Source: Owenia fusiformis (Eukaryota). Taken from it: a stretch of DNA of 64,000 nucleotides. The stretch lies in assembly GCA_903813345.2 (NCBI GenBank), contig CAIIXF020000001.1, forward strand, positions 16,368,001 to 16,432,000, written 5' to 3'. The translations under genes and the position numbers were made by a program. Under the pieces are notes generated by a model. That model saw nothing but the letters and a program-made list of their open reading frames with translations, was not told where the DNA came from and searched no databases. Positions 1-47,453 of the stretch are shown here, one piece after another (positions within the stretch are counted from its first letter, which is position 1; the number at the start of each line of letters is the position of its first letter).

Positions 1-780
1 AAGAATTCCAACTACTTGTGATATTTAGGTAGATACATGAGCAATATGTTCATTCCATTTTAGTTTATCATCGATAATAACTCCAAGAAAAGTAGTCTTT
101 GAAATTCTCTCAATAGGTATATTTCGAATTTTAATATTTAGCATTTTTATTTCAAATGTTTTTGATTTCTGTGAATTAAAGATCATGAATTTAGATTTTT
201 CTGTATTAAGCGATAGTTTATTTACACGTAGCCATTCGTCAAGAATTTCTAATTCAGAGTTTACATGATTAATAAGAGTACTTAGATTTTTATGTGAGCA
301 GAGGAGATTTGTATAGTATAATTTTTGAAGAAGTATCTCATGATTAACAGTATCAAATGCTTTAGATAAGTCGATAAAAATGGCAATATTAAAATCTTTC
401 TTTTCAATTCAATGGGATTAATATAATGTCTCTAAGAAGCTGGTAATAGCCATATATGTAGATCTAGTTTTCCTAAAGCCAAATTGATGTTCACAGAAGA
501 TTTTGTATTTTTCTAGAAAATCTATGAGTCGATTTGCCATTACTCGCTCCAGCACTTTTGAGAATACTGATAATAGGGAGTTTGGTCTATAATTATTGAA
601 TTTAGTTTCACCCTCCTTTTTGAACATAAGTTTGATTTGACCTTGGCCAGGGCTTTTGTATCCAAGTTCTTTAGAGATTTTGCTCATTTCATAATTTGAG
701 ACATCTGATAGGAAAATTGACCTGTTAAAATTTTTTTCAAGTTCTTTTTTCTAAATAATACCTTGGCTGTTTCAATACTA
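1..780 (-). mobile_element. Degraded non-LTR retrotransposon RT fragment (CR1/L2 group), runs off the window start
   Basis: ORF 418-687 has NYRPxSLLSVFSKVLER...HQFGFRK..ST; downstream minus-strand pieces read IFIDLSKAFDTVNHEIL, DTNLL and WLRVNKLSLN, with stops and deletions. Confidence 0.85.
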
Positions 781-12459: not shown

Positions 12460-14320
12460 ATCTCCTGCTGTCAAAGATAGCAGTGCATCTATTGATGATA
12501 TCAAACCTATTATTATACGTCAGTCTAAGGATGACCTTCTAAACCCTCTTCTTTTTATTTATAATATGTCTTTTCAACAGGGATGCTTTCCTGATCTTCT
12601 TAAAATGGCTAAAGTCATACCCATATTTAAATCTGGTGAAAATGACAAATTTACAAATTACAGGCCAATATCGATTTTGTCTGTATTTTCTAAGCTCATT
12701 GAGAAACTTGTCCATAAGCGATTATACACTTTCTTTGAAGAATCAAAATTATTTTACTTACACCAATTTGGATTTCGAAAACATTTCTCCACATATATGG
12801 CAATTTTGACCTTTGTCGAAAATATAAGATCAGCTCTTGAAAATGATAAATACTCCATTGGAATCTTCCTTGACCTGTCAAAAGCGTTTGACACTATCAA
12901 CCACGATATTCTCATAAAAAAAACTTGACTTCTATGGTGTCGGACAAGTTGAACAAAACTTTTTTAAAAGCTATCTTCAAAATCGTAAACAAATTGTTTC
13001 TTATGATGGTGCCCTGTCTGACACCCTAACTGTTTCCCAGGGAGTCCCTCAGGGATCCGTTTTGGGACCACTTTTATTTATCATTTATGTTAATGACCTG
13101 TTCACGGCGTCAAAAAGTCTTAAATCTGTTTTATTTGCAGATGACACTAATCTTCTAGCTTCTGACCATAATTTGACTAGACTTGTAAATACTGTTAATC
13201 AGGAACTCATTACTCTTGATGACTGGTTTAAAGCAAACCTCCTTTCTTTAAACTATTCAAAAACAAAATTCATCGTCTTCTCCAAAAAACGAAAAAAGAT
13301 TTGTCAACAAATTGAAATATTTATAAATGGAAAACAAATTGATAGGGTTCATGAAATAAATTTTTTGGGAGTTACAATTGATGAATTCCTTGACTGGAAA
13401 AGTCACATAAAAAATGTAGAAAGAAAAATATCTAGAACCATTGGAATCTCATTCAAATGCAGATACTTGCTAAACATAAAAAGTATGTTAGCAATTTATA
13501 ATTCTTTAATATATTCCTACTTGAATTATTGCACAATCATTTGGGCCGGAGCATATTCAGCTTTGGATAAACTACTCAAATTACAAAAATCATACCTTCG
13601 TCTCATGGCAGGAAAAGACAGGTTTGAGCACTCGGCTCCACTTTTCAAACAATTTAGAATACTTCCAGTGCATGATATCTATCAATTAAATGTTGGAATT
13701 TTTGTTTATTGCTGGTATAACAATATATTAGTCCACCGCAAGATTTTTGAAAACTATTTTACGTTAAATGTTGACATTCATCGGTATCAAACTAGACATT
13801 CACATGATATCCATGCCTTCAAGTTCAAAACAAATATTGGCCTTTATTCACTGAAAGTGCAAGGTCAGCAAATCTGGAATTCTATATCTCATCATATTCG
13901 ACAAGCAGCCTCACTCTCAATTTTTAAGTCTTTGTTCAAACAAAATAAAATAAATGACATACCTTTATAGTTTTAAAGATTTGAAAATGTCTTTACTATT
14001 GAAAATCTGTACTCTGCCACATTTTGTCTTATCAACTTATATATTTACATATTATAAACTTAGCAGCAATTACCCGTTCTCGTGTCCTGTGTCTCTGTCC
14101 CCGAGTGTTAATATTTTTTACATTTTTGAAATTATTTCCAACAGACTTGGGCCAGTGTCATTCTCAGGTATTTCTCCACTCCATTTTTATTTGTCTTACC
14201 TGTTGGTGTCACTGACCCATTTCTGTCCAGTTAAAACCAACATATATGCTCTTGAGAGCGTCATGTTGTATTGAATGTCATATATAATTTTCAAAATAGT
14301 AATAAATATCTGAATCTGAA
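12460..14320 (+). mobile_element. 3' piece of the LINE: RT domain, 3' UTR and (TCTGAA)2 tail (CR1/L2 group)
   Basis: FPDLLKMAKVIPIFK, NYRPISIL, DLSKAFD, GVPQGSVLGPLLF, FADD; one frameshift in the A-run near 12920; stop at 13970; aataaa then tctgaatctgaa. Confidence 0.93.
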
Positions 14321-23449: not shown

Positions 23450-26400
23450 TTACTGCTTGAATATCTTTTGAGCAGTTTTCCATGCTTTGTCATGGGCTTC
23501 TAACTTGTTATTCTTCTCTGCATTGCTTCTGCTTATGATTTCCTGGGCTTCAACATATTTCTTGAGGCCTGTCATATTTGGTGGTTTATTGTCTAATTTG
23601 TTGAGATAGATGTAGTGTTTAACCAAGAGTAGCGTCAGGTTTTCTCCCAAACTGGTGTTCTCTCCTAGGAAGTATTTTGCTCTTGTCAGGTTTTGTATTT
23701 GACACAGTTGGGTGACCATCTCTATGAATGGTTTGACAGCTATACATTCGTATAGTCCATGTTCGATGGTATCCTGTTTGTCTTCTTTACACAATTCACA
23801 TTGTGGGCTTGTTTTGATTTTCATATTGTGTAGCATTTTGTTGAAAAATATTGTTCGAAGTAATATTCTATATTGGAAATATCTCAGTTTTGTTTCCTTT
23901 GTTGTTATGTATATTCTACAGTAGTTGCTTTTCCAGTTTATATTTGTGTTGTCTATCGCCTTTTCCCATAGTTGTTGTTGTTTTATTGGTTCTTCAGTGT
24001 GGCTTTTTATTAGTATGTTATATGTATCCTTATTCGTCATTGTTTGTAGTTCCTTTATAGAAATGGATTTTTCTTTCACATCAGTTTCTGTCTCGGTCCT
24101 TCTCGGTGTTTTTATTTGGTTTCTCCATTCAGCTGGTATGCTGTGTATGATGTGGTACCATTGAATAAATGTTGTGTTTATTAAATCAAATTTCCTTTTC
24201 AGTGCTTGGTACGGGATTAATTGATTGTCCTCATACAACTGTTTGATATATATTATCCCTTTGGATTTCCACCCCTCTATATATAAGGTCTCTCTTCTAT
24301 TTTGTACGTGTCTATTGTTCCAAATTATCTGGTTTTCGGGTGTATGGATGTCCTTGTACTCCTTATAATGTATTGCACACCATGCATTGTATACGTCCCT
24401 TGCTGCTGTAAGTTTGATGTTGCTGGCAATCATCGGATTGATTTCTCTGAGGTTGTATTCCCATGCATGTTCTCTGATATCTTCAAACTGCTGTTGCCAG
24501 AGTATTTTCCACTTACTTTTTATGTTGTCGTCCGTTAATTTTTTAATCCATTTGAGTTTTAATTTATTAGCAAGTGATGGAATATGCGTCATTTCAAGAC
24601 CTCCATAAGGTATTCCACCTCTTAATGTTTTTCTTGCTATTTTGTCCGGTTTTCCGTCCCATATAAAATCAAATAGTATTCTTTCTAGTTCTTTGGTCAT
24701 TTCAGCTGTTGGTGCTTTTAACACTGACATTGGATATGTTAACTGTGATAAAAGTAGTGACTTTATAACCACGATTTTACCCATCAGGGATAGATTTCTT
24801 TGCTTCCATATTTGTGCTAATCTTAGTATAGTCCTGATTGGTTTGCTATAGTTGATTTCTTCTATGTTTCTTCCATCTATCGGTATTGTTAAGCCTAGGA
24901 GGTTAATCTCCTTTTCTTCTAGATTCACTCCAATATTTGTGCATATTCTCTGTGTCTTTTGTTTGTTTATCTGGTTGTCTTTTCCAATGGTTACTACTGT
25001 TGTCTTTTCTTTATTGATTTTAAGTCCTGATATCATCTCAAATTTATTAAAAAGATCTAGTGCATTTTCTAAATATGAGGCGTCTTTAAGGAACAAGCAG
25101 GTATCATCTGCATATTGCGAGATTCTGAGTTCTTCGTTTTCTGTTAGATTGATACCTTTTATTTTGTCTGTCTTCCGTGTAGCATTGCTAAGAACTTCTG
25201 CACATAGGATGAATATGTAAGGACTCAATGGGCAGCCTTGTCGTACACCTCTTTCAAGGTTGAAGTACCTGGATGTGAAGCCATTGTTTATTATAGTGCT
25301 GTTTATTCCATTGTAGAAAGTTTCAACCCAGGCTATTAAGTCTGTGCCAAAATTAAAATACTTCAAGGTTTTATAGATGAATTTCCACTCCAATGAGTCG
25401 AATGCCTTTTGGAAGTCGATAGTTGCCATAATGCCATTCTTTCCTTGTTGAGTCAAATGTTCCATTACATCTAGTGATAGTCTTATGTTCTCACCTATGT
25501 ATCTGTTTGATATAAATCCTGTCTGGTCTACGTTGATAAGTTTGTAAAGAACTTTTTTAATGCGTTCTGCTATGGCCTTTGTCATTATTTTGTAGTCGTT
25601 GTTAAGTAGGGTTATGGGTCTCCAGTTCTTTATTTTGTTTGGATCTTTACCTTTTTTGGGTATTAGAGTAATTATTCCTCTTTTTTGTTCTATCGTCATG
25701 TCTTTGTTATTTTTTGAGTAGTTGAAGCTTGCACACATTGGGTCTATGATGTCATCTACAAATGTTTTATAAAATTCACTGGAGAGTCCATCGCTTCCTG
25801 GGGTTTTGTTGTTCTTGAGGTTTGAAATTTGTTTTCTGCATTCATCTGCTGTTATATGCCCTTCACAATTTTGTTTTTCATCTTTGTTTAGTTCCAGGTT
25901 TTCTCCTTTTGGGAAAAAGTCTTTATCAAATTTAGTTGTTTCTACAATTCTTGTTTTATATAATTCACTGTAAAACTTTGCTTGTTCTTCACTTATTTGT
26001 TTTTGGTCTGTTATTAGGACGCCTTCTTCATCTTCAATGGCTGTCATGGTTTTGTTTATGTAATTGTGTTTTTCAAGATTTAGGAAGTATCTTGTTGGCT
26101 TTTCTCCTTCATCTACCCATTGACATTTACTTCTAAAGATAGCGCTTTTAGCCTTCTCTTCTTGCATTAAGTCTATTTCGTTCCTTATTTTTTCAGCTCT
26201 GTCTGTTAACTTCTGTCTTTCTGGATCGGCGAGTGATTTATTGTTTTCCTGATGTTCAATCATAATTACTTGGCCAATTTTAATATCTAGTTCTTGTTTT
26301 TTCTTCCTCTTTTTCTCTGTTGCGTAGCGTCTTGTCTCCATTTTAATGTTAAATTTGATTAATTCCCATAAACTATTTGGGTTGAGGTTTTCATTGTTCT

Positions 26401-37016: not shown

Positions 37017-40000
37017 TTTCTTGTTGCAGCAGAGGGCAGTTTAATAAAAAGTGATGCGTTGTTTGTTGTATGTCACCACATACGCAGAAAGGGTCATTTA
37101 CTGTCACAAAGTTATGGGAATATAAATGTGCTTTTAGAATCAGTCCAGCTCTAAATCTATTGAACAGAATTTCGATTTTCCTTGGCATTGTCATATTCAT
37201 TTTAGTAGTGGATACTCTGGAGTCAGGGCTCATATTTCCTCTTACTAACCTTTTAAATCTAGATATTGGTTGGCCTTTCCTGTCCTCATATGGTATGTCA
37301 TGATAATGGTTGACTTTTTGAATGAATTACTGATTGGAAAGGGTATTCTATAATGCTTAAGAGATCACAATGATAAATTGATTTTGAAAATTCCCGATTA
37401 ACCGATTGTCTTCAATTTAAAACATGGCCACAAAGTGAATATTTCATGTTCTCTCATGAGATGCGACCAAATTTTGACCAATCATGCAAGCTTGACAGTG
37501 ATTTAGGCTAATAATATCCCACATCCAACGTGTGACCCAAGGAGGATTGGATCCCAGACTTCAATCTCGATATTCTGCCATATATGGAGATGTCGAGATT
37601 ACAGAATTCGAATTCCAACAGCCGCCATTCTGTTCACTTCAGAATTTGAATTGAGAGTTTTGGTCTTATTTCCAAACAAAAAATTGATCGAGATATTGGT
37701 TCGAATTTTTTTGACTGTTGATTATGAAATTATAGTCAGTTCAAGGAGGATTATCTCCCAGAGAATGCAACATCGATATTTTTGCCATATATGGTGTAAT
37801 GACCTCGACCGTACTATCATGAAGTCGTGTCGTGATAACAAAATTTAAAATCAAAATGTCCGCCATTTTTTAATGTTGTCATCAGAGGGGGAGAAACACC
37901 AGGGTTCAAAGATGACATACGCTTATAATGTAAATCTGTATTGAGATGACACGGTCGCTGATTGGTCAAAAGTCGACAAACAAATGACGTCATCAATGGC
38001 GGTTTCAAAGTTTTCGAAATACGCTTCGAATAATATTATGTTCATTTCTGGCGTGTTTAACCAATATCATAGCTTCTCATTTCACATCAAGATAAAGAAA
38101 GGTGTACGGAATATGCCTATATCAATTATAACATCCCATCGAAGTGTAGTATTTGATAACTAGCCGATGAAAATTCGAACGAACGAAGGTGGTAAGCAAG
38201 AGAGGTAATTATGTCTGTCATCTTGAAACTCTGGGGCTTTCCCTCCTCTTTGTTGTCATCGACCAAGGTCAAGGTCGAATGTTGAGTTGGAGCCCTTTTG
38301 GCTAATCCTCCTTGTAGGCAGTTATAATGTCTGAAAATAACGACATTCTGACATTTTCATTGTTGGAAAATATCGAGTTGCGTCCCTGGGAGCCAATCCT
38401 TTTTGGCATGACTTAAGGTATGAGTACCGTAATCCAACACCAAATTCGAAAATTCATAACAATACTTTGCACATATGGCGTTCGTGACCAACTATAAAAC
38501 GCTTACCCCCATAGTGTTATATATCAAAATGTACCTGTTCATATAGGGGTTCGATTGATCTACATCAAATTATAGGGAGTCGGGTTACTTTTTGAGATAT
38601 CAGCGTCCATTTATTGTGACTCGCGTTTGCTACCACTTCCTCAATTCTGATATGATGGGCAAACGCGTAGTAAACATGCTCACGTCGGAACTATTTTTGA
38701 CCTACATCGCTATTTTCGTAATTCAAATGAAAGTTGAACTCCTCCTCTTTATTTTGATACCAAATAGTGGCATACTAGGTACCCTAGAAGCCAACTATGG
38801 CGTTATTTAGAACAATACCACGAGTTTTTAAATGGACTATATAGGGATGGATATGGAACCTCATACCCCAATAGTATAGTTTCCATATAGCTTTTGAAAT
38901 CTCGCTAAATCTCGTTTTTCGTGAGATTTTAAGAGACTTGCATACCAGACCTCTAATGACTTACATTACCTTCTTTTAAATGGCATATTTGAATTCAGTG
39001 AAATGTTTTCTCCTATAATACCTTTGATTTACACAGTTATGTAATTTGAAATGACAATTTAAAAAAACTTGGGCCAAATGTCCATAGATGCAATGCTAAA
39101 ATTCTTTAAAACCGTGGATTATTTGTATGTCAATCAACATTTGCATGTTTAATCACAACATGTACATAAACAGGGTCATCATGTGGTATATCATTCAAGT
39201 TTTATACAGATTCAACTAACACACTTTGATAAATCATGAAATTAAGCCACTTTTCCAAGATTTTAACATGTAAGTGAATGGAACTCTAGCCCAAGTTAAA
39301 AGCTGAATAAAAGATGGCAGCACTAGATTTCATTGATTTTTCTGCTATTTAGAAACTATCCTATTATCAGGTATTTATAAAATAAATGTAAAAGACTAAA
39401 TGTTTTATTTTGTTTTGTTGGCCCGCTTTCACAATACACATAAAAACACATATATTTCAATATGTATTTCATTGCAAAATTAATTCCTATGTCTCGATTA
39501 GTATTTGATTAGGACTAAGTTTATGTTAGCCTCAGGTTGTGTATATGTTTGCAGTATACTATTAGTCTTGTTCTTGGATTGGTCATGTAAATCATATCAT
39601 CCGACTTTATCTCTAAAACTTATAAAAAACCTTACTATATTTTGGTGTTTCACTTTTAAGAATTGCATCGGTGCGTGTTCCCAAGCTATGAATCCTTGCG
39701 TAATCAGCTGAGACCACGAATACACTTGGGCTTATCTTTCTGGCATGAAACTATTAGGAATATATTCATTATTTCTTCCGTTTACTTTTCCCCCAGTGCA
39801 TTTATCCTAAACAGAAAAAAGGTGTTAATCCATATAAATGAGCACAATGATTGAAATAACTTACCGTATACAAAAATTATGAGATTTAATTTTGTTGATT
39901 GATTTTGAAATATTGAGTTATACAGGGAGCGGTAATTACGTCCATTATTCTTATTTGATAGTTGCATTTAAGCCTCATTTAAAAATCCCCAGGCAGCTAT

Positions 40001-40105
40001 ACAAAGTACTGAGTGGGCCAATAAACGTTGCTCCCTTTATGGTTTTATAATAAAGCTGTTATATTTCTTTTTGTACAACTTACTAGGCCTATTAACAGAG
40101 GGGGA

Positions 40106-43100
40106 GCAAATTGTTGTATTGTTTTAAAAAGTTTTTGCAAAAATGAATTTACACTCACGGGTACAAAACGATAATTATCGTCCACATACTTGTCTTTTTT
40201 ATATCTGCTAGGAACGCTACACTATTCTCCTAAATAATACTATGGTATTTTGTTATGGTTTGGTATTCAACTATATGACAATAACCAAGCTGTATACACC
40301 TATAATCCACCTTGAAATGTCAACTATAAGTTCATGTGATATTGTATCACTCTGAACTGCACAGAAATGTGCATGTCAACCACAATGTATATTATAGACT
40401 ATTGTTTTGAGCCAAATGTTACTTGATAAATTACTCATAAGCTTTTATTTTTCCGAGGCGATCCTCTCGTGTTCCATTTCAACGTATGCTTGATGTTAGA
40501 ACCATGATTGTGTGCTGGTGGAGTGCTGCTGCTGTCATCCCCGGGGCTGTGGTTGCACATGGGGGTTAGTATTATGCAATGGAGGTCTGCGATAGGTATG
40601 TTCAGAGTGGGATTATGTAAGGTAACTTCTACAAATACAACCAATAACTTCAATTTGAATTTTGTCCAGTTTAGGAACTTATTATTTTCTAAGCTCACTT
40701 TAATTCTCCTGATAACAATCAGTACTCTCATGCTGGGAATATACTTTACACTGTATCATCTTCAATATAACCTAAGGCAACTCATTGACATCAAAACATG
40801 CATAATATCTATTTTAGTTTTATGTAAAATCTTGAGTTCAATGCTTGTTCCAATTTTTGTTCCAGTGTCCATTTCATGGAGACTCTACAGTATAAATAAA
40901 TACAAGCTAAATCCAAGGTACACTCTGGCTCTGTTGCTGACTACATGCCTGTCACTACTTATACCAGGTTTCAGTATACTTTTCTGTCAACCCAATATTT
41001 CTGATCTCATTTTGACCTTGTCCACTGATGTTGAAAGCAATCCCGGGCCTGATGAATATTGTTTTCTCAAATATAAATAGCCGCAGGGCTGATAATGGCG
41101 CTAGATTTGAATCCCTTGATATTTGGAGAAATAACAATGCTAATGTTATAGGACTATGTGAAGCTGGTCTTTTAACAGATAACATTATACATGATAAATA
41201 TTTGCTGAAGGGATTTCACACGCCCCTTTACTCTCCAAATGGTCGCGGTTTAATGATTTACACCCACGAGAACATTTTGCAGACACCTAGGCCTGATCTC
41301 AGTATTGATGGCCTTGATGCAATGTGGGTTGAGTTAAAAATGAAACATAAAAAAATTCTTTACGGGGTCTTTTATCGTTCCCCTTCGCAATCAGCCAATC
41401 AGAGAGATGAATATTTAAACTTGATGAATCAAAAACTCCAACAATTGAACAACATTAATTTCGATGGGATTATTCTAAATGGAGATTTTAACGCAAAAAG
41501 CAAATCTTGGTTCCTCCAGGGAGATGAAGATTACACCGGGAAACTTCTAAATGATATTCTATTTCAAAATGGATTTGACTGTTAAAGAACCCACAAGAAT
41601 AACTCCAACATCATCTAGCTGTATTGATTTGACAATTACCAATTCACCTGGCCTTTTGAACTTTTCCAAGGTGTGTGAACCTATAGGCTCAACTGATCAT
41701 TGTACTCTATTTACCCAACTTGATGCATTGTTACATAAAGAGGAGTCTGAACTTAAACGTGTATGGAAATATAATTTAGCAAATACCGAAGCACTTAATC
41801 AAGACATAGAGGATATTGACTGGAATGAATTTTTTAATCAGACTGAAGATGTAAATATTTTGACTGAAGTGTTTACAAATAAAATGATGGCATTGTTTAC
41901 ACTGCACATTCCAAGCAAACTCAAAAAAGTAAAAGCCAATGATAAACCCTGGTATAATGAGATAATTGCTCATGCTATTCAAAAAAAGAAAAAAATGTTT
42001 TTGAAGTTTAAGTTAAGCAAATCAGAGCAACACTATATGGCTTATAAGGCCCAAGCTGAAGTTGTTAAAAATCTTGTAACATCTACGAAGGACAATTTTA
42101 CAAATGAACAGGTTGACTCATTGAATGGCGAGACTCATGCCAATGACAAATTTTGGGTACTTATCAAAAAACTTTTAGGCAAAAAAGTTAATAGTCAAAT
42201 TCCTACAATGGAACATTCAGGCATAATCTCCAGTTCTAGTCAGGAGAAATCTGATGCCTTTCTTAACTTCTTTGTTGAAAAAAAATCATTCAAATGAAAA
42301 TTTTGACCACTTTAACACTCCTTTTCCTCAGAGGTGCGATAATCTGTTAAGTGGTATTACATTTGATAGACAGGATATTACTAACATAATAAATAATCTC
42401 GACCCTTCCAAGGCCAATGGCCCTGATGAAATCACCATCAAAATGCTCCAAATATGCTCAAAGTCAATTTCATTTCCTCTCTACATTTTATTCAATAAAC
42501 TTTTACAGGCAAACACTTTTCCTCAAATTTGGAAACTTGGGAATGTTTGCCCTATACATAAAAAAGATAGCTAAAATAATCTTAGCAATTACAGACCTAT
42601 CTCTCTCCTTAGCATTGTTTCCAAAATCATTGAAAGGATAGTCTATGATAAAATGTACAAGCACCTTATTGAAAACAATCTACTTTACAAATATCAATCT
42701 GGATTTTTGAAGGGTCATTGCAATGAAATCCAACTTCTAGCGATTCATGATTTTATTTGGACAGATTTTAGTAATGGCTTTGATACTAGGTCGGTCTTTT
42801 TGGACATTCGGCCGCTTTTGATAGGGTACCACACCATCTGTTAATACATAAGCTGAAAGCATATGGCTTTTCAGGAAAGCTCTTGAATTTTATTATTTCA
42901 TACCTCTCAAATAGAAAAATAAAGGTCACAGTAAACGGTAAATCATCTCAAACATCCCCGGACAACTATATAAACTGCAGTGTCCCTCAAGGAAGTATCC
43001 TTGGGCCGCTCCTCTTCCTTATATACATTAATGACTTGCCTGATACTTTATCTTCAAAATGCTTCATATATGCCGATGACACATCAATATTTTTGCCAAC

Positions 43101-44541
43101 AAGCCCAAATGACAACCTATCTCATATTCAACTCCAAAATGATATTCAAAAGGTAGAAAATTGGTCTGACATCTGGAAACTTGAATTTAAGCCAGAAAAA
43201 AGCAAAGAGTTGATTTTTTCTAAGAATAATAATGCAAATAATTATCCTCCAATTGTGTTAAATGGCCACGCAATCACAAGAACTGACACCCACAAACATC
43301 TTGGCTACTACTTTGACAATAAGCTATGTGGATCAGTTCACATCAACGATTTAGCCTCTAAGATCCAGACAGCACTTAATCCAATGAAAGCTCTGAAAGG
43401 AAGACTGAAGTCCAAACATCTTATATCATGTATAATGCCTATATCCAGTCACTCTTTGACTACTGTGATGTCCTATATGATGGTGCAAACCAAATTGACC
43501 TAAAAAAGCTTAGTAGTTTACAGTACCAAGCTGGTCTAATTGTGTCTGGAGCTCTGTCAGGATCAAGTGCCTGTAAAGTATTCAAAATTTTAAATTGGTC
43601 TTGCTTGCTTGATCGTAGAAATTTTCACTTTAAGAGTCTTATGTATAAAGTCGACAATGCCCTCATTCCATCATATATAACAGACATATTCATTCCTTAT
43701 AAAAGAGTCAATATTAGAAATACGCGTTTTAACAGAGATTATATCATGCCTATTAATTATCCCAGAAAATCACCAATATACAAGATGGTCGAGATATGGA
43801 ACAATGTACAACGTGATCAGCCTTATCTGAAGTCCCTTCCTTCATTGGCCTCCTTTAAAAGGAGACTAAAAATCGAAATGTTCCCTGGGATTATATCTAC
43901 TGTGTCCCTTAATATTCTAAATCGCAGGCAAGAGATGTACCTCAACAGAGCCAGAGTCGACCTTATTTTGAAGACCCAATTGATATCTCACAACTGGAAT
44001 AATGTTGACTCCCCAAACTGTGAGTGTGGGTCCCCTGAGACCTTTAGACATTTATTTTTTAGCTGCCCCATGAGAATGAATAAACTTCATCAATTCAATG
44101 AAGCCATTGAGTTAATTGTGGATGATATATCACGTTATAAAACCCAACAGGATAAAATTGATTTATATCTCTTTGGTGATCCCGAACTCACCCATGATAA
44201 ATTAGACAATCTATTTCAGTTGACAGCAACATTTTTTTTAGAAAACTGTTAATGGTTGTGCATGGTTGCACATAATCTGACTACCTTAGACCCCACTTAC
44301 CCAACCCCTATGTGTAATTGGTCGCCCCATCTATGTTGCAGCAGGTCCCCGTCAGTGCACTTCATTTATAACATGCCACATCTAAACAGTGGTTGTGTTT
44401 TATTTTTCTTGAATTTTTCGTATATTTATATGTAACATTGTAATTGAAAGCGGACATAAAATGCCTTGCGATTTGCCGCATGATTGTGTATTATGACATG
44501 AAAAATATATCAATGAAATAAACCTATTGTTAAAAAAAAAA
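40106..44541 (+). mobile_element. CR1-group LINE, apparently complete but frameshifted: hydrophobic leader, 2A-like motif, APE, RT, CCHC
   Basis: 15-bp TSD attaacagaggggga at 40091-40105 and 44542-44556; aataaa and A-tail; GLCE, YRSP, GDFN, TDHC, VPQGSILGPLLF, YADD, CECG...HLFFSCP; breaks near 41051, 41580, 42290, 42574, 42810 and 43430. Confidence 0.92.
41003..41050 (+). other. 2A-like (StopGo) peptide DLILTLSTDVESNPGP
   Basis: gat gtt gaa agc aat ccc ggg cct (41027-41050) matches D(V/I)ExNPGP and sits immediately before the endonuclease domain. Confidence 0.85.
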
Positions 44542-47453
44542 ATTAACAGAGGGGGAATATCAATCAAATTCAAATGTTACATCCTATAATCTACTATTTC
44601 GATATTTGATGTATATTCCTTAGTTTTTCAAAAAAATCTACAAATATTTCGTTGCGGTTTTATCTTTACATCGTAATTTCAACATCCTCCTAAGCAGGTG
44701 TCCAGAATCTGTACCTCCTTCTCCCCCCCCCTGCTATAAGCAGTATAGAAGCGCCCGATTAAACTGAATCACGTGATTTAAATTATTCGCCGATGGCGTA
44801 TAAATGATTTCTGTCTCAGTGTTGCGGCAGCGAATCAAATTGCGAGTTCTTAATCGGGGAAATGCTAACTGCTTACCGCATGGGGTAAAACAAAGAAGAT
44901 ATTCTGGACTTTGAAGCCCTGTGATCGGAGGATGAATTTCAGTCACCGCCATCATTTTCAAACGAGTTACCTTGACTGTATTTTCATACTTGAAGAAACT
45001 AAATGTGACTGTCATTCACCATTTTTTAAGCAGTAAAAAATAATTTGCTACAATGGTGACAACATGTTTCTTGTTTCCTGTTGAATGTCGAGTCTCGCAT
45101 CATACGAATGTATGTAATTTTAGGCGATATGTCTACATGGGTGTTATATGGCTCTGGTTCTGCCTTTAAGATCCAACCAGCATTGAAACTGTATATTTAT
45201 ATTTGCCATAATCAAAGCGCAGTAATTGCAACTAGTTTCTGGGTCTTACCACCATGATAAACTATGACATCTCATTTCTTCTCAGTCCATGTTTCGCCCC
45301 GGGGTGAAACAGAAAGATGTTATGAGTATCAGTATGGGGTCTTACGGGGGCAGTTAAACTTGTTAAAGACTACTTAGAATTAATGCAGGACATTGTGCTA
45401 AGAACGAGATATTGACACATCGGGTTGAAAGTACTTGTCTTCAATATTCCTTTTCCAATTGATCCAATTTGATAAGTTGTCGAGGTAATTCGAATTATCT
45501 ATTTTATAACCTATCATTTAACGAAATTATTTGGGGAAAATAAATTGCCCCTTGTGTGTAGCTCAATATCGAAACTGACGGAATCATTGAATGCAATCTT
45601 TATTGACTTTTATGCAATAATAACAACGGTGCTTCATATTAACAAGTGGAATTTACAACCAAGTTCACTTCAAATATACTGAAAATAATTGAATTGGTAT
45701 TTAATCAAAATATAGTATGATAGATCCGAGCCAGTACGCTTGACTAGTTCTTTATTATGTATTTTTAATGATTTCCAACAAGATTGTATCGATAGCGAAT
45801 GCATATATTTGTTGGAGCGATTGTTAAGTCTATAGACATTGCTGTCCCGAATACCCATAAATCACCAAGTTGTTGTTTAATTCATGGAAAGGATAACTCC
45901 TCCAGCCGCCCGGGGGAACATTCAATAGCAATCGAAACCAATAGAAAAATGGAAATTATAATCAGAATACAAAGTGGAAATTGATAGACAATAAATATGA
46001 GTTAGTTTGTGGGGTAATTTGTAGTCTTATTCAGATCAGTTGTAAATGGATATCCCAAAGCAGGATACGTCAATGCTATATAGAAAACATGCTAACGTCT
46101 GGTCAATAATTTATGTTTTTAATGAAATAGAACTGAAAATAAAGAAGATTAATACAGACAAATAAATCAAGGGAAGATCATTTTTTAATCGACCAAACCC
46201 GTCAATATTTCATCTTTCTTTTATATCAAAGCAGAATCGCAAACGGCATTTTATACGTTAAATTATTGTCAAGTATTCTAGAATGATAGGGTCTCGTTTC
46301 AGGGATTGGTTATTACTCCTCAGAACAAAAAAAGAGAATGCACTGAAAGAATCACGTTTTCCTGCTTCTACGAGATCAAATACAATCCATCGAGAATAAT
46401 GGTCGATACTAGGTATTTAATGTAAAATGACTGTGTTGGAAGAATCCCATGAATGGCATATGTCCACTTAAAAGTATTCAAGACTGAGGGCTTTTCCCGC
46501 AACACTCAACATTCAAACATGCTAGAAACAGACAATCGATCTTAATAGCATCTCTCTATTTACCTTGTCTTTCACTTATGTTGCATCAAAAGCCATGCTT
46601 CTTTATACGCTATTTAGCTTTCTTCCACTTGATTAGACATTACACCTTTTATCGACAGGTGGAACTTACTTTTAGTTGCTTAAAGAATTGCCATATTATT
46701 TAGGATGTCAAAACTGGTCAAAAAGCGATCTTTCATTTATGAACGATTTGAGGCACTGAAATCAGATACTGTATTTAAAGTGGTAATTTTACTTAATCAT
46801 TTAAATTGCCTATTACCTATTTTTGCCAGTTTCGGTTAATCAAATGTCGGAAATATTATCTTCATAATCTCATCCAATGGGATGTTTCTTGTTATTAGGA
46901 AAATTAAAATTAGAAAATTTGACTATTCAGAAAATTAACCACTCGGATTAAATACCACTAATAGATTTTCACGTGATTGAATCGATACTGTTTTGACAAT
47001 AGCTGGCCCTAGGATTATTAAAAATGCTCTATTGATCTTCATATAGTGTTTATTATATTGACACATTCTAATCTGTATTTACTTGTCAAGCAAGACTCGA
47101 AATAGGAAACTGCGAATTCAAACTGTTGCGTTTGCGATTATGTCCCTGACAGATGGAAAATATCAAATGCGTATTACACTTTAATAATATTAAGGTAGTA
47201 ACACTGGAAACATTATAACATGTATATGCATTTTTATCTCTAATTAAACGTGCGTTTGGCTCCGTGTGGTTTAATACAAATGAATCCTCTGGTCCTGGTA
47301 TTACTTTTATTGTATCTTTTGAAATAAAATCCAACATTCCATTCAATAAATGTAAAAATTGCAACCATTGTAAAATGTTTTAATGAGAGATAGATAACAG
47401 GAAAGTGGTGCTTATCTATCTACATTTCAATGTTTAGCATTGCAAATCCTTAA

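Follow-up and report, generated by a model that had tools for sequence, protein, structure and literature searches.

Non-LTR retrotransposons that mostly lack an ORF1 and carry a 2A ahead of their APE endonuclease are already known (Odon 2013, PMC3708506); an earlier note on the present DNA had likewise mentioned 2A-like motifs upstream of APE domains in invertebrate non-LTR elements. Elements of the Rex1, L2, L2A, Crack, CR1 and Ingi types, among them the L1Tc/Ingi elements of trypanosomes as cited in PMC3708506, show an N-terminal D(V/I)ExNPGP motif in a single ORF; such 2A sequences were active in vitro, and partial skipping is described there as common among 2A-like sequences. In these elements the 2A is located about 40-80 aa from the N-terminus, whereas in the LINE described here it ends at aa 164, following a conserved protein with three predicted hydrophobic helices, and this LINE is further distinguished by an A-run tail and a 15-base target-site duplication (TSD). 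The words transmembrane, hydrophobic and membrane are absent from the main text of PMC3708506.

Coupling of a hydrophobic targeting sequence to an N-terminal 2A, with skipping deciding the fate of the product, has been described for the SpNLR proteins of Strongylocentrotus purpuratus (PMC4981915); there, a host immune protein has a 2A of 26 aa as its signal peptide, whereas the 2A of the present LINE occupies aa 145-164, behind the 144-aa multi-helix leader of a retrotransposon. The esterase-type ORF1p of ZfL2-1, found in CR1/L2-like LINEs (Schneider 2013, PMC3905857), is likewise a LINE protein without an RNA-binding domain; it sets a membrane precedent in that it binds phospholipids and liposomes, and RNP assembly at membranes has been proposed for it. 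It differs from the leader in that a separate ORF1 encodes it and that it combines a coiled coil with an SGNH esterase and binds membranes peripherally; it bears no sequence relation to the leader and has neither integral helices nor a 2A. In the ORF2p-like proteins of a preprint (PMC13405545), a 2A likewise links APE-RT to an extra module at the N-terminus, but these modules (Josephin/OTU deubiquitinases or PPR) are soluble enzymes or repeats of algae and dinoflagellates, and the preprint describes no membrane leader. For non-LTR elements, a transmembrane or conserved multi-helix hydrophobic leader preceding a 2A was not found in the literature searched, nor by term look-up in PMC3708506, PMC3894237, PMC4981915, PMC12338488, PMC13405545 and PMC12846837; supplementary file 1 of PMC3708506 and subscription papers might hold one.

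The DNA analysed, here called the window, is a 64 kb stretch of the marine worm Owenia fusiformis. Its LINE lies on the + strand and spans 40106-44541 between the TSDs, with the following features:

40091-40105, no strand: 5' target-site duplication ATTAACAGAGGGGGA, 15 bases exactly equal to 44542-44556
40106-40558, + strand: 5' UTR of the element, with 0 ORF1 and no + strand ORF of at least 50 aa
40559-41047, + strand: leader coding region, 163 aa (Met1-Gly163), homologous over its whole length to P0001 and P0002
40559-40603, + strand: conserved N-terminal motif MGxSxxQWRxAIG(xF), with M1, G2, S4, Q7, W8, R9, A11, I12 and G13 invariant in the three-sequence alignment
40676-40762, + strand: hydrophobic block 1 (aa 40-68), Kyte-Doolittle peak 2.16; AlphaFold2 helix 32-72, block pLDDT 59-73
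40778-40876, + strand: hydrophobic block 2 (aa 74-106), Kyte-Doolittle peak 2.39; AlphaFold2 helix 78-112
40919-40990, + strand: hydrophobic block 3 (aa 121-144), Kyte-Doolittle peak 2.18; AlphaFold2 helix 119-134
40991-41050, + strand: 2A-like, putative StopGo element (aa 145-164, ending SDLILTLSTDVESNPG/P), recognized from the sequence
41052-41670, + strand: APE-type endonuclease domain, from Pfam and tblastn with P0003, with a frame shift near 41577; the end is an estimate from the Pfam range 49-246 of P0003
41054-41055, + strand: frame break private to the window copy, where other copies have 5 extra bases
42584-43305, + strand: reverse transcriptase domain, from Pfam RVT_1 and tblastn with P0003, with a frame shift near 42806
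43965-44072, + strand: C-terminal Cys/His zinc-knuckle region, a weak Pfam zf-RVT match (E 0.0075) under the cut-off
44250-44541, + strand: stop codon, 3' UTR and A-run (44532-44541), from the ORF list and the sequence
44542-44556, no strand: 3' target-site duplication, the second exact copy of the 15-base ATTAACAGAGGGGGA

The hallmarks of insertion comprise the 15-base TSD, an A-run of 10-11 bases directly before its 3' copy, and a read depth that climbs from 5' to 3' (319 to 1,904), as with 5'-truncated copies of a multi-copy family. Run X1 contains an empty-site-like contig in which 40100 is joined to 44551, a contig of X2 (2,418 bases) begins at 40102, and RNA reads span the leader region. 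Inside the 64 kb window blastn finds no further copy of this LINE, the 3 other RT fragments of the window are devoid of NPGP, and Rfam gives 0 matches. Since the stretch from the 5' TSD to the leader frame has no + strand ORF of at least 50 aa, ORF1 is absent. The earlier note had described much the same anatomy: a leader of ~163 aa from ATG 40559 with three hydrophobic stretches, STDVESNPGP directly before the APE domain, and APE-RT, all within the TSDs and without a separate ORF1; it is borne out by ORF translation, Kyte-Doolittle windows, Pfam and the TSD match.

The reverse transcriptase is of the non-LTR type, with RVT_1 scoring 74.4 bits (cut-off 29.6; E 1.4e-20) and a tblastn match to the EN-RT protein P0003 (E 1.9e-67), the closest EN-RT relative found. 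An in-frame stop at 42572-42574 is situated just upstream of this domain. For the endonuclease, Exo_endo_phos (20.0 bits, E 6.4e-4) and Exo_endo_phos_2 (22.1 bits, E 1.4e-4) stay under their curated cut-offs because the frame shift splits the domain; the APE part of P0003 itself reaches 67.9 bits in Pfam, and residues 44-183 of this protein, which belong to that part, align to 41052-41492 (tblastn, E 2.8e-13). P0003, in which zf-RVT is also matched (Pfam, E 2.9e-5), was the sole match of an APE query among longer proteins and has neither leader nor 2A. In look-ups of short motifs alone, RT motifs of the window such as PQGSILGP, LFLIYIND, NYRPISLLS and AFDRVPH match CR1, Daphne and Crack entries in the RT reference file of PMC3708506, and Jockey entries are also among the matches.

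The frame of ATG 40559 extends over 163 aa to a Gly; Pro164 comes next (41048-41050), and the frame closes with a stop at 41078-41080. Kyte-Doolittle windows of 19 residues reach at least 1.6 at aa 40-68, 74-106 and 121-144; the third block is preceded by an invariant N-P-R (N118, P119, R120) and contains an invariant P-G-x-S (P136, G137, S139). Pfam holds no family for the leader, and its best ESM Atlas score, 0.87 (fungal small proteins), lies under the lead threshold of 0.9. A search of 1.84 billion protein representatives returned only two relatives, P0001 and P0002, both end-to-end matches at 35-37% identity (E 4.2e-13 and 2.6e-11). The leader family is known from three members; one of the two relatives is named Owenia fusiformis, and one of the three members is probably from the same genome as the window. 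Both relatives share with the window leader the N-terminal motif and the three hydrophobic blocks, and both close with a 2A in the corresponding position, reading DVHPNPGP in P0001 and DIELNPGP in P0002 and ending at about aa 151 and about aa 148, respectively; in all three homologues each block reaches at least 1.6, number and position are kept, and helices are predicted on the blocks. Even without the 2A, the similarity gives z 17-19.5, and 0/500 composition-preserving shuffles reach the score. At the level of sequence, the leader is conserved as a protein. The earlier note would have given up its reading if the leader frame were not conserved among copies; this is answered in part: two relatives with only 35-37% identity retain its frame and architecture.

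An AlphaFold2 model based on the three-sequence alignment is of low confidence (pLDDT 51.9, pTM 0.29) and places helices on the hydrophobic segments; hydropathy and this model suggest that the leader is a candidate for a multi-pass membrane-type protein. Judged by eye, the leader has a basic N-terminus, a basic loop 2 and an acidic tail. An amphipathic N-terminal helix was considered and rejected, the hydrophobic moment of residues 3-16 not being above shuffles in 4/4 sequences; N-myristoylation of Gly2 was rejected by eye, the four N-termini failing to match the PROSITE-type pattern.

The leader ends in STDVESNPG/P just before the APE domain, with DVESNPGP at aa 157-164, in agreement with the C-terminal motif D(V/I)ExNPGP. 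No other NPGP occurs in any of the six frames of the window, whose six-frame amino-acid composition predicts about 3e-5 chance matches to D[VI]ExNPGP for its whole length. The residues upstream of the 2A core, PNISDLILTL, have Leu at three positions (-10, -12, -14) and Ile at two (-13, -17), and the leader thus has the hydrophobic, Leu-rich context at about -19 to -10 that in helical form serves as a 2A criterion in PMC13405545, its helical structure being a low-confidence prediction. Of 10 LSNDVE-type peptides in that preprint five skipped (supplementary file 3), and the five non-skipping ones include a core-sharing peptide ending in SNDVESNPGP; the leader's own 2A peptide is absent from the set.

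With a probability of about 55%, the leader is released by StopGo as a small ER-membrane protein and EN-RT is made as a separate chain by the same ribosome. The observations behind this reading are that other copies and RNA show a single frame, as detailed below, and that the leader is conserved; translation, skipping, the membrane steps and function are what we infer from them. Translation would begin at the leader, which is marked by its conserved N-terminal motif, three hydrophobic helices and basic loop, and the first of these helices may carry the translating ribosome together with the LINE mRNA to the ER membrane. StopGo by the 2A at Gly163/Pro164 would set the leader free as a small multi-pass membrane protein in its own right, after which the same ribosome would continue to a free EN-RT beginning with Pro. 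The leader might replace the missing ORF1 protein by siting translation or RNP assembly at the membrane; unskipped chains would represent mis-targeted fusions, so that the dose of EN-RT would be lower. It can further be imagined that this LINE lineage swapped the RNA-binding ORF1 protein for its own small polytopic membrane protein of the ER or nuclear envelope, obtained via StopGo from the same ORF: the leader helices would dock the LINE mRNA, the 2A would free EN-RT beside its own RNA, and cis-preference and RNP assembly would be brought about by membrane anchoring instead of an RNA chaperone. This wider reading we hold to be unlikely.

The family bears on two questions, namely how the RNPs of ORF1-less LINEs are assembled and delivered, and why a 2A is so frequently placed ahead of the endonuclease. 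Odon postulated a function "upstream of 2A", and the leader, a small conserved protein with three membrane-type helices, is a concrete candidate for it. Should it be a released membrane protein, the locus would provide a natural case of a 2A directly after a multi-pass membrane segment, and LINE replication would be tied to membranes, as proposed for esterase-type ORF1 proteins. Membrane-linked replication is known for positive-strand RNA viruses.

A different view of the same sequence, which we hold to be unlikely, is that the 2A and the hydrophobic stretch upstream of it mainly throttle the translation of EN-RT by stalling, fall-off or degradation, while a released leader would have no function as a membrane protein. 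In PMC13405545, 59% of the tested ORF2p-associated 2A-like peptides lower protein abundance, an effect tied to Leu-rich upstream helices, and the non-skipping peptide with the SNDVESNPGP core was scored with reduced protein. Down-regulation of the product downstream of 2A was also proposed by Odon 2013 (PMC3708506). However, about 20-30 aa would suffice for a throttle, yet conservation, at 35-37% identity, extends over 140 aa ahead of the 2A and includes invariant motifs at a distance from it (MGxSxxQWRxAIG, NPR, PGxS), with the z values given above for the similarity outside the 2A. If the leader were a translational throttle only, the result would be a modest extension of 2A-LINE biology.

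Along the lines of the sea-urchin NLR signals, inefficient skipping might instead be put to use by dual targeting, with a membrane-anchored leader-EN-RT fusion beside free EN-RT. In that system a 2A-like N-terminal signal yields both cytoplasmic and exocytic forms (Roulston 2016, PMC4981915), and many 2A-like sequences skip partially (PMC3708506). The charge distribution of the leader, read by eye with the positive-inside rule, suggests an N-in/C-out topology, in which unskipped EN-RT would end up facing the lumen, remote from the nucleus; moreover, the NLR 2A is itself the N-terminal signal, whereas the 2A of the window follows three helices. Dual targeting appears quite improbable to us.

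In the window copy, the frame behind the 2A stops 10 codons on, and the APE-like frame, which opens with ATG 41052, is shifted by +1. The earlier note had seen this shift of 1 nt and had offered two explanations, a mutated copy or re-initiation at ATG 41052. Were the break native, leader-2A would form a separate short ORF, with EN-RT arising by re-initiation at this ATG or by programmed frameshifting; the known leaders (3/3) indeed stop 6-24 aa past NPGP, the two database relatives at 6 and 24 aa, and a profile search among longer proteins found no fused leader-EN-RT protein in the databases, which is weak evidence. But 5 more bases are present behind 41054 in 1/1 contigs of X1 (depth 323.7 of 323.7), in 1/1 contigs of X2 and in 3/3 RNA reads of X22, with 0 reads of RNA run X24 at this junction, and the version of the window occurs in none of these contigs and X22 reads. 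By frame arithmetic, the 5 extra bases bring leader, 2A and APE into one frame in the other copies and RNA reads, the point that the earlier note had asked to check with a genome consensus, and re-initiation at ATG 41052 is therefore unneeded. The +1 break behind the 2A is a private feature of the window copy. The pieces of the window copy lie in frames 2, 0, 1, 2, 2, 1 and 0, and indels of +5, +5, -1, +1 and +1, together with a neutral +3, cancel every shift; in some RNA reads the frame-restoring indel is missing (0/2 and 0/1 at 42806; 0/4 in X22 at 43421). As the four further frame breaks are also matched by indels, the window copy has simply decayed: it is a dead member of an ORF1-less APE-type LINE family, with five frame breaks and one in-frame stop. 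Of the two explanations, mutation stands and re-initiation falls, and a native break is very improbable. Restoration by the indels at the five frame breaks gives a length of 3,705 bases, or 1,235 codons; intact members would accordingly be predicted to contain one ORF of ~1,235 codons, made up of leader (163 aa), 2A, APE, RT and zinc knuckle.

That AT-rich DNA (34% G+C) ahead of a 5'-truncated LINE gave rise to the hydrophobic ORF by chance, for which one might adduce the preference of such DNA for Phe, Ile and Leu codons and the lack of a Pfam family or of an ESM Atlas match of at least 0.9, is refuted by the two full-length homologues, by the shuffles and by the multi-copy occurrence of a leader within the TSDs, next to a 2A motif with the low chance expectation stated above, and retains practically no probability.

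Beyond this family, a metagenome scan with the leader profile gave six loci (L001-L006), all of which match only the 2A residues 145-164, with 72-83% identity. In an hhalign comparison of the leader profile with the N-terminus of L006, only the 2A was aligned. L006 has a similar N-terminal motif, MG-x5-WR-x3-G-x-F, then a near-identical 2A, at the head of an unrelated, transposase-like ORF of 2,092 aa, a hint that different mobile elements may use the leader-2A unit as a portable cassette.

The window copy of the element, an APE-type LINE, lies between two exact copies of a target-site duplication (TSD) and is composed as follows.

Features of the window copy
40091 and 44542: TSD ATTAACAGAGGGGGA, 15 bases, exact repeat; an A-run directly precedes the second copy
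40106-44541, + strand: element between the TSDs, bounds set by the TSD pair
453 bases upstream of ATG 40559: 5' region with no ORF of at least 50 aa
ATG 40559 to stop 41078-41080, + strand: leader frame, 163 aa to Gly163, then Pro164; the stop lies ten codons past Pro164
Leader aa 40-68, 74-106 and 121-144: hydrophobic blocks (19-residue Kyte-Doolittle windows at or above 1.6)
End of leader frame: 2A-like sequence ...SDLILTLSTDVESNPG/P
From ATG 41052, +1 frame relative to the leader: APE-like endonuclease; Pfam matches below cut-off, aligns to the APE part of P0003, the endonuclease-reverse transcriptase (EN-RT) protein used as reference
Downstream: reverse transcriptase (RVT_1, 74.4 bits, Pfam)
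Downstream: zinc knuckle (weak zf-RVT match, Pfam)

The observation of the earlier note is correct in every point, as the TSDs, the leader frame, the blocks, the 2A and the APE/RT pieces were all located as described: a leader of about 163 aa with three hydrophobic stretches, a 2A-like motif at its end ahead of the APE domain, no ORF1 within the TSDs, and an APE frame displaced by 1 nt. When the window is translated in all six frames, no NPGP occurs other than the one at the leader end, and the chance expectation for D[VI]ExNPGP, calculated from the window's own amino-acid composition, is ~3e-5 matches. The insertion bounds are supported by a contig of set X1 (depth 53.1), which joins 40100 to 44551 without the element, like an empty site, with a one-base difference where the TSD has its G-run. 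Such a contig would come either from a polymorphic insertion or, if the flank is repetitive, from a paralogue that the element never entered. On the opposite strand, a 106-aa stop-to-stop ORF (40435-40755, -) runs antisense to the leader start and is probably due to chance.

The coding part of the window copy falls into seven pieces in frames 2,0,1,2,2,1,0: the frame shifts five times and is interrupted once by an in-frame stop (42572-42574). Contig sets X1 and X2 and the raw RNA-seq runs X22 and X24, all public runs with the same organism label, were placed on 40000-44650 at a likeness of at least 85%. Behind 41054, the sole X1 contig (depth 323.7/323.7), the sole X2 contig and 3/3 X22 reads carry five extra bases, which cancel the offset between leader and APE; the window's version of this junction was seen in no X1 or X2 contig and no X22 read, and X24 has no read there. 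Five bases are likewise added behind 41577 (X1, X2, 2/2 X24 reads), one is missing at 42278 (X1 depth 509.3/562.6, X2, 2/4 X22 and 3/3 X24 reads), and single bases are added behind 42806 (X1 and X2; RNA 0/2 X22 and 0/1 X24 reads) and behind 43421 (X1 depth 700/831.7, X2 21.4/43.5, X22 0/4 and X24 5/9 reads). A frame-neutral +3 at 41126 also occurs among the indels of other copies. Frame arithmetic on these indels, as listed for the five frame shifts and with the in-frame stop left outside it, gives a corrected coding span of 3,705 bases, or 1,235 codons. Because the indels in contigs and RNA reads restore the frame, the prevailing form of the family runs leader-2A-APE-RT in a single frame, of which the window holds a decayed copy. 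The earlier note had allowed for a mutated copy or for re-initiation at 41052; the former is supported, and the latter is unnecessary once the family form is read in one frame.

A phmmer search with the 163-aa leader, run on a set of 1.84 billion cluster representatives (E at most 0.001), returned only two matches, each aligned from residue 1 to the 2A: P0001 (157 aa, 37% identity, E 4.2e-13), recorded for Owenia fusiformis as an unnamed protein, partial, and probably representing a diverged subfamily within the same genome, and P0002 (172 aa, E 2.6e-11, 35% identity), encoded on a 1,151-base ENA contig. A profile search of a 5.8-billion-sequence set recovered the same two and nothing further, Pfam held no family for any of the three leaders, and the ESM Atlas gave no match of at least 0.9 for the window leader. 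Invariant in the three-leader alignment are M1, G2, S4, Q7, W8, R9, A11, I12 and G13 at the N-terminus, N-P-R ahead of the third hydrophobic block, P-G-x-S within it, and the end L-x-L-x-L-S-x-D-x-x-x-N-P-G-P. Without the last 20 residues before Pro, Smith-Waterman scores lay 17-19.5 SD above composition-preserving shuffles, and 0/500 shuffles reached the observed score in each of the three pairs; thus, the similarity is more than shared 2A or hydrophobic composition. Both homologues have the three hydrophobic blocks, and AlphaFold2, run on the three-sequence alignment, placed helices at 32-72, 78-112 and 119-134 with low confidence (mean pLDDT 51.9). The frame has stayed open, and the three helices and a number of invariant motifs persist, although identity is down to 35-37%, which speaks for selection acting on the leader protein. 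On the other hand, P0001 and P0002 end 6 and 24 aa past NPGP, and P0003, the nearest EN-RT protein found with the APE piece as query, lacks both the leader and the 2A (33% identity to the APE piece). No fused full-length leader-EN-RT protein was found among longer proteins in the profile search, which is weak evidence.

The proposed mechanism starts from what is established for the family, namely that there is a single ORF and no ORF1, that the leader is conserved and has three hydrophobic helices, and that the 2A core is canonical. D(V/I)ExNPGP, given a suitable upstream helix, causes the ribosome to skip the Gly-Pro bond. The first helices, on emerging, would draw the ribosome and the LINE mRNA to the ER; the leader would then be released between Gly163 and Pro164, and the membrane-docked ribosome would go on to make EN-RT as a separate chain on the cytosolic side. 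Only 19 residues separate the end of the third helix from the skip site. The ribosome exit tunnel holds about 30-40 residues. At release the third helix would thus still be in the tunnel, and its membrane insertion would have to come afterwards. By eye, the N-terminal region and loop 2 are basic and the tail acidic, which by the positive-inside rule suggests an N-in/C-out topology. A fusion that escaped skipping would then have its EN-RT facing the lumen and is probably a dead end, which fits a 2A that doubles as dose limiter, as proposed by Odon 2013 (PMC3708506) and likewise in a 2026 preprint (PMC13405545).

Skipping activity in vitro is reported in PMC3708506 for 2A-like sequences before APE in ORF1-less non-LTR elements. 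The window's 2A peptide is absent from the set tested in PMC13405545; among the ten LSNDVE-containing peptides reported there, five skipped, two showed fall-off only, one fall-off with reduced protein, one was non-skipping and one non-skipping with reduced protein. According to PMC2978324, 2A can be inhibited by upstream sequences translocated into the ER. A membrane role in LINEs has a precedent in the esterase ORF1p of ZfL2-1, described in PMC3905857 as binding phospholipids and liposomes, for which its authors proposed membrane-sited RNP assembly. A function as a membrane protein is plausible for the leader.

A 2A before APE is already known, and it is the conserved three-helix leader that differs here. 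PMC3708506 lists the arrangement for single-ORF LINEs of the Rex1, L2, Crack, CR1 and Ingi clades, with the 2A about 40-80 aa from the N-terminus, whereas the leader of the window family is twice as long and is itself conserved as a protein, with its three hydrophobic helices. A motif look-up in the RT reference file of that paper found the window's short RT motifs in entries from CR1, Daphne, Crack and Jockey, which suggests a place for the element somewhere in the CR1-like group. In the literature searched, no hydrophobic three-helix leader before a 2A was described. The sea-urchin NLR signal sequences of PMC4981915 likewise couple targeting and skipping, but there, as that source presents them, the signal is the 26-aa 2A itself, unlike the window leader. 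Algal ORF2p-like proteins, according to PMC13405545, carry soluble DUB or PPR domains before the 2A and not membrane leaders.

A metagenome scan with the leader profile gave six loci, with the match confined to the 2A. Five (L001-L005; L001:350-748) encode a short N-terminal peptide, a near-identical 2A core (SDLILLLSNDVESNPGP against SDLILTLSTDVESNPGP in the window) and then a coiled-coil-like region, as in the 2A-bearing ORF1p-like proteins presented in PMC13405545. The sixth, L006:1299-7574 (+), begins with MGIDTHLWRLRVGCF, resembling the leader's MGxSxxQWRxAIGxF; its LSNDVESNPGP ends at about aa 148, and the ORF runs on for 2,092 aa. By eye, a cysteine-protease/USP-like stretch directly follows the 2A and is itself followed by a Ser/Pro-rich repeat of some length; the ORF had no Pfam and no PDB match, and the sole Atlas lead for its C-terminal part was weak (RAG1-type RNase H transposase folds, at most 0.82). 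L006 may be a leader-2A unit ahead of a DNA-transposon protein. Its N-terminal resemblance stays an unexplained lead, since hhalign of the leader profile against it did not extend the match past the 2A.

The family is multi-copy. Contig depth, which does not equal copy number, climbs from 319 (40468-40623) to 1,904 (44056-44211), as is usual where LINE copies are 5'-truncated. The leader has low RNA read coverage, the first mate lying mostly on the - strand in a library that may or may not be stranded. Elsewhere in the window, tblastn with P0003 located three further LINE RT fragments, at 12494-13943 (+), 25061-25858 (-) and 319-675 (-); none contains NPGP, so they are 5'-truncated or from other families. 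The 3' flank of the element (44557-44650) is a very high-copy repeat, with a summed contig depth of 21,979 versus 126 in the 5' flank, and many loose contig ends fall at 44598.
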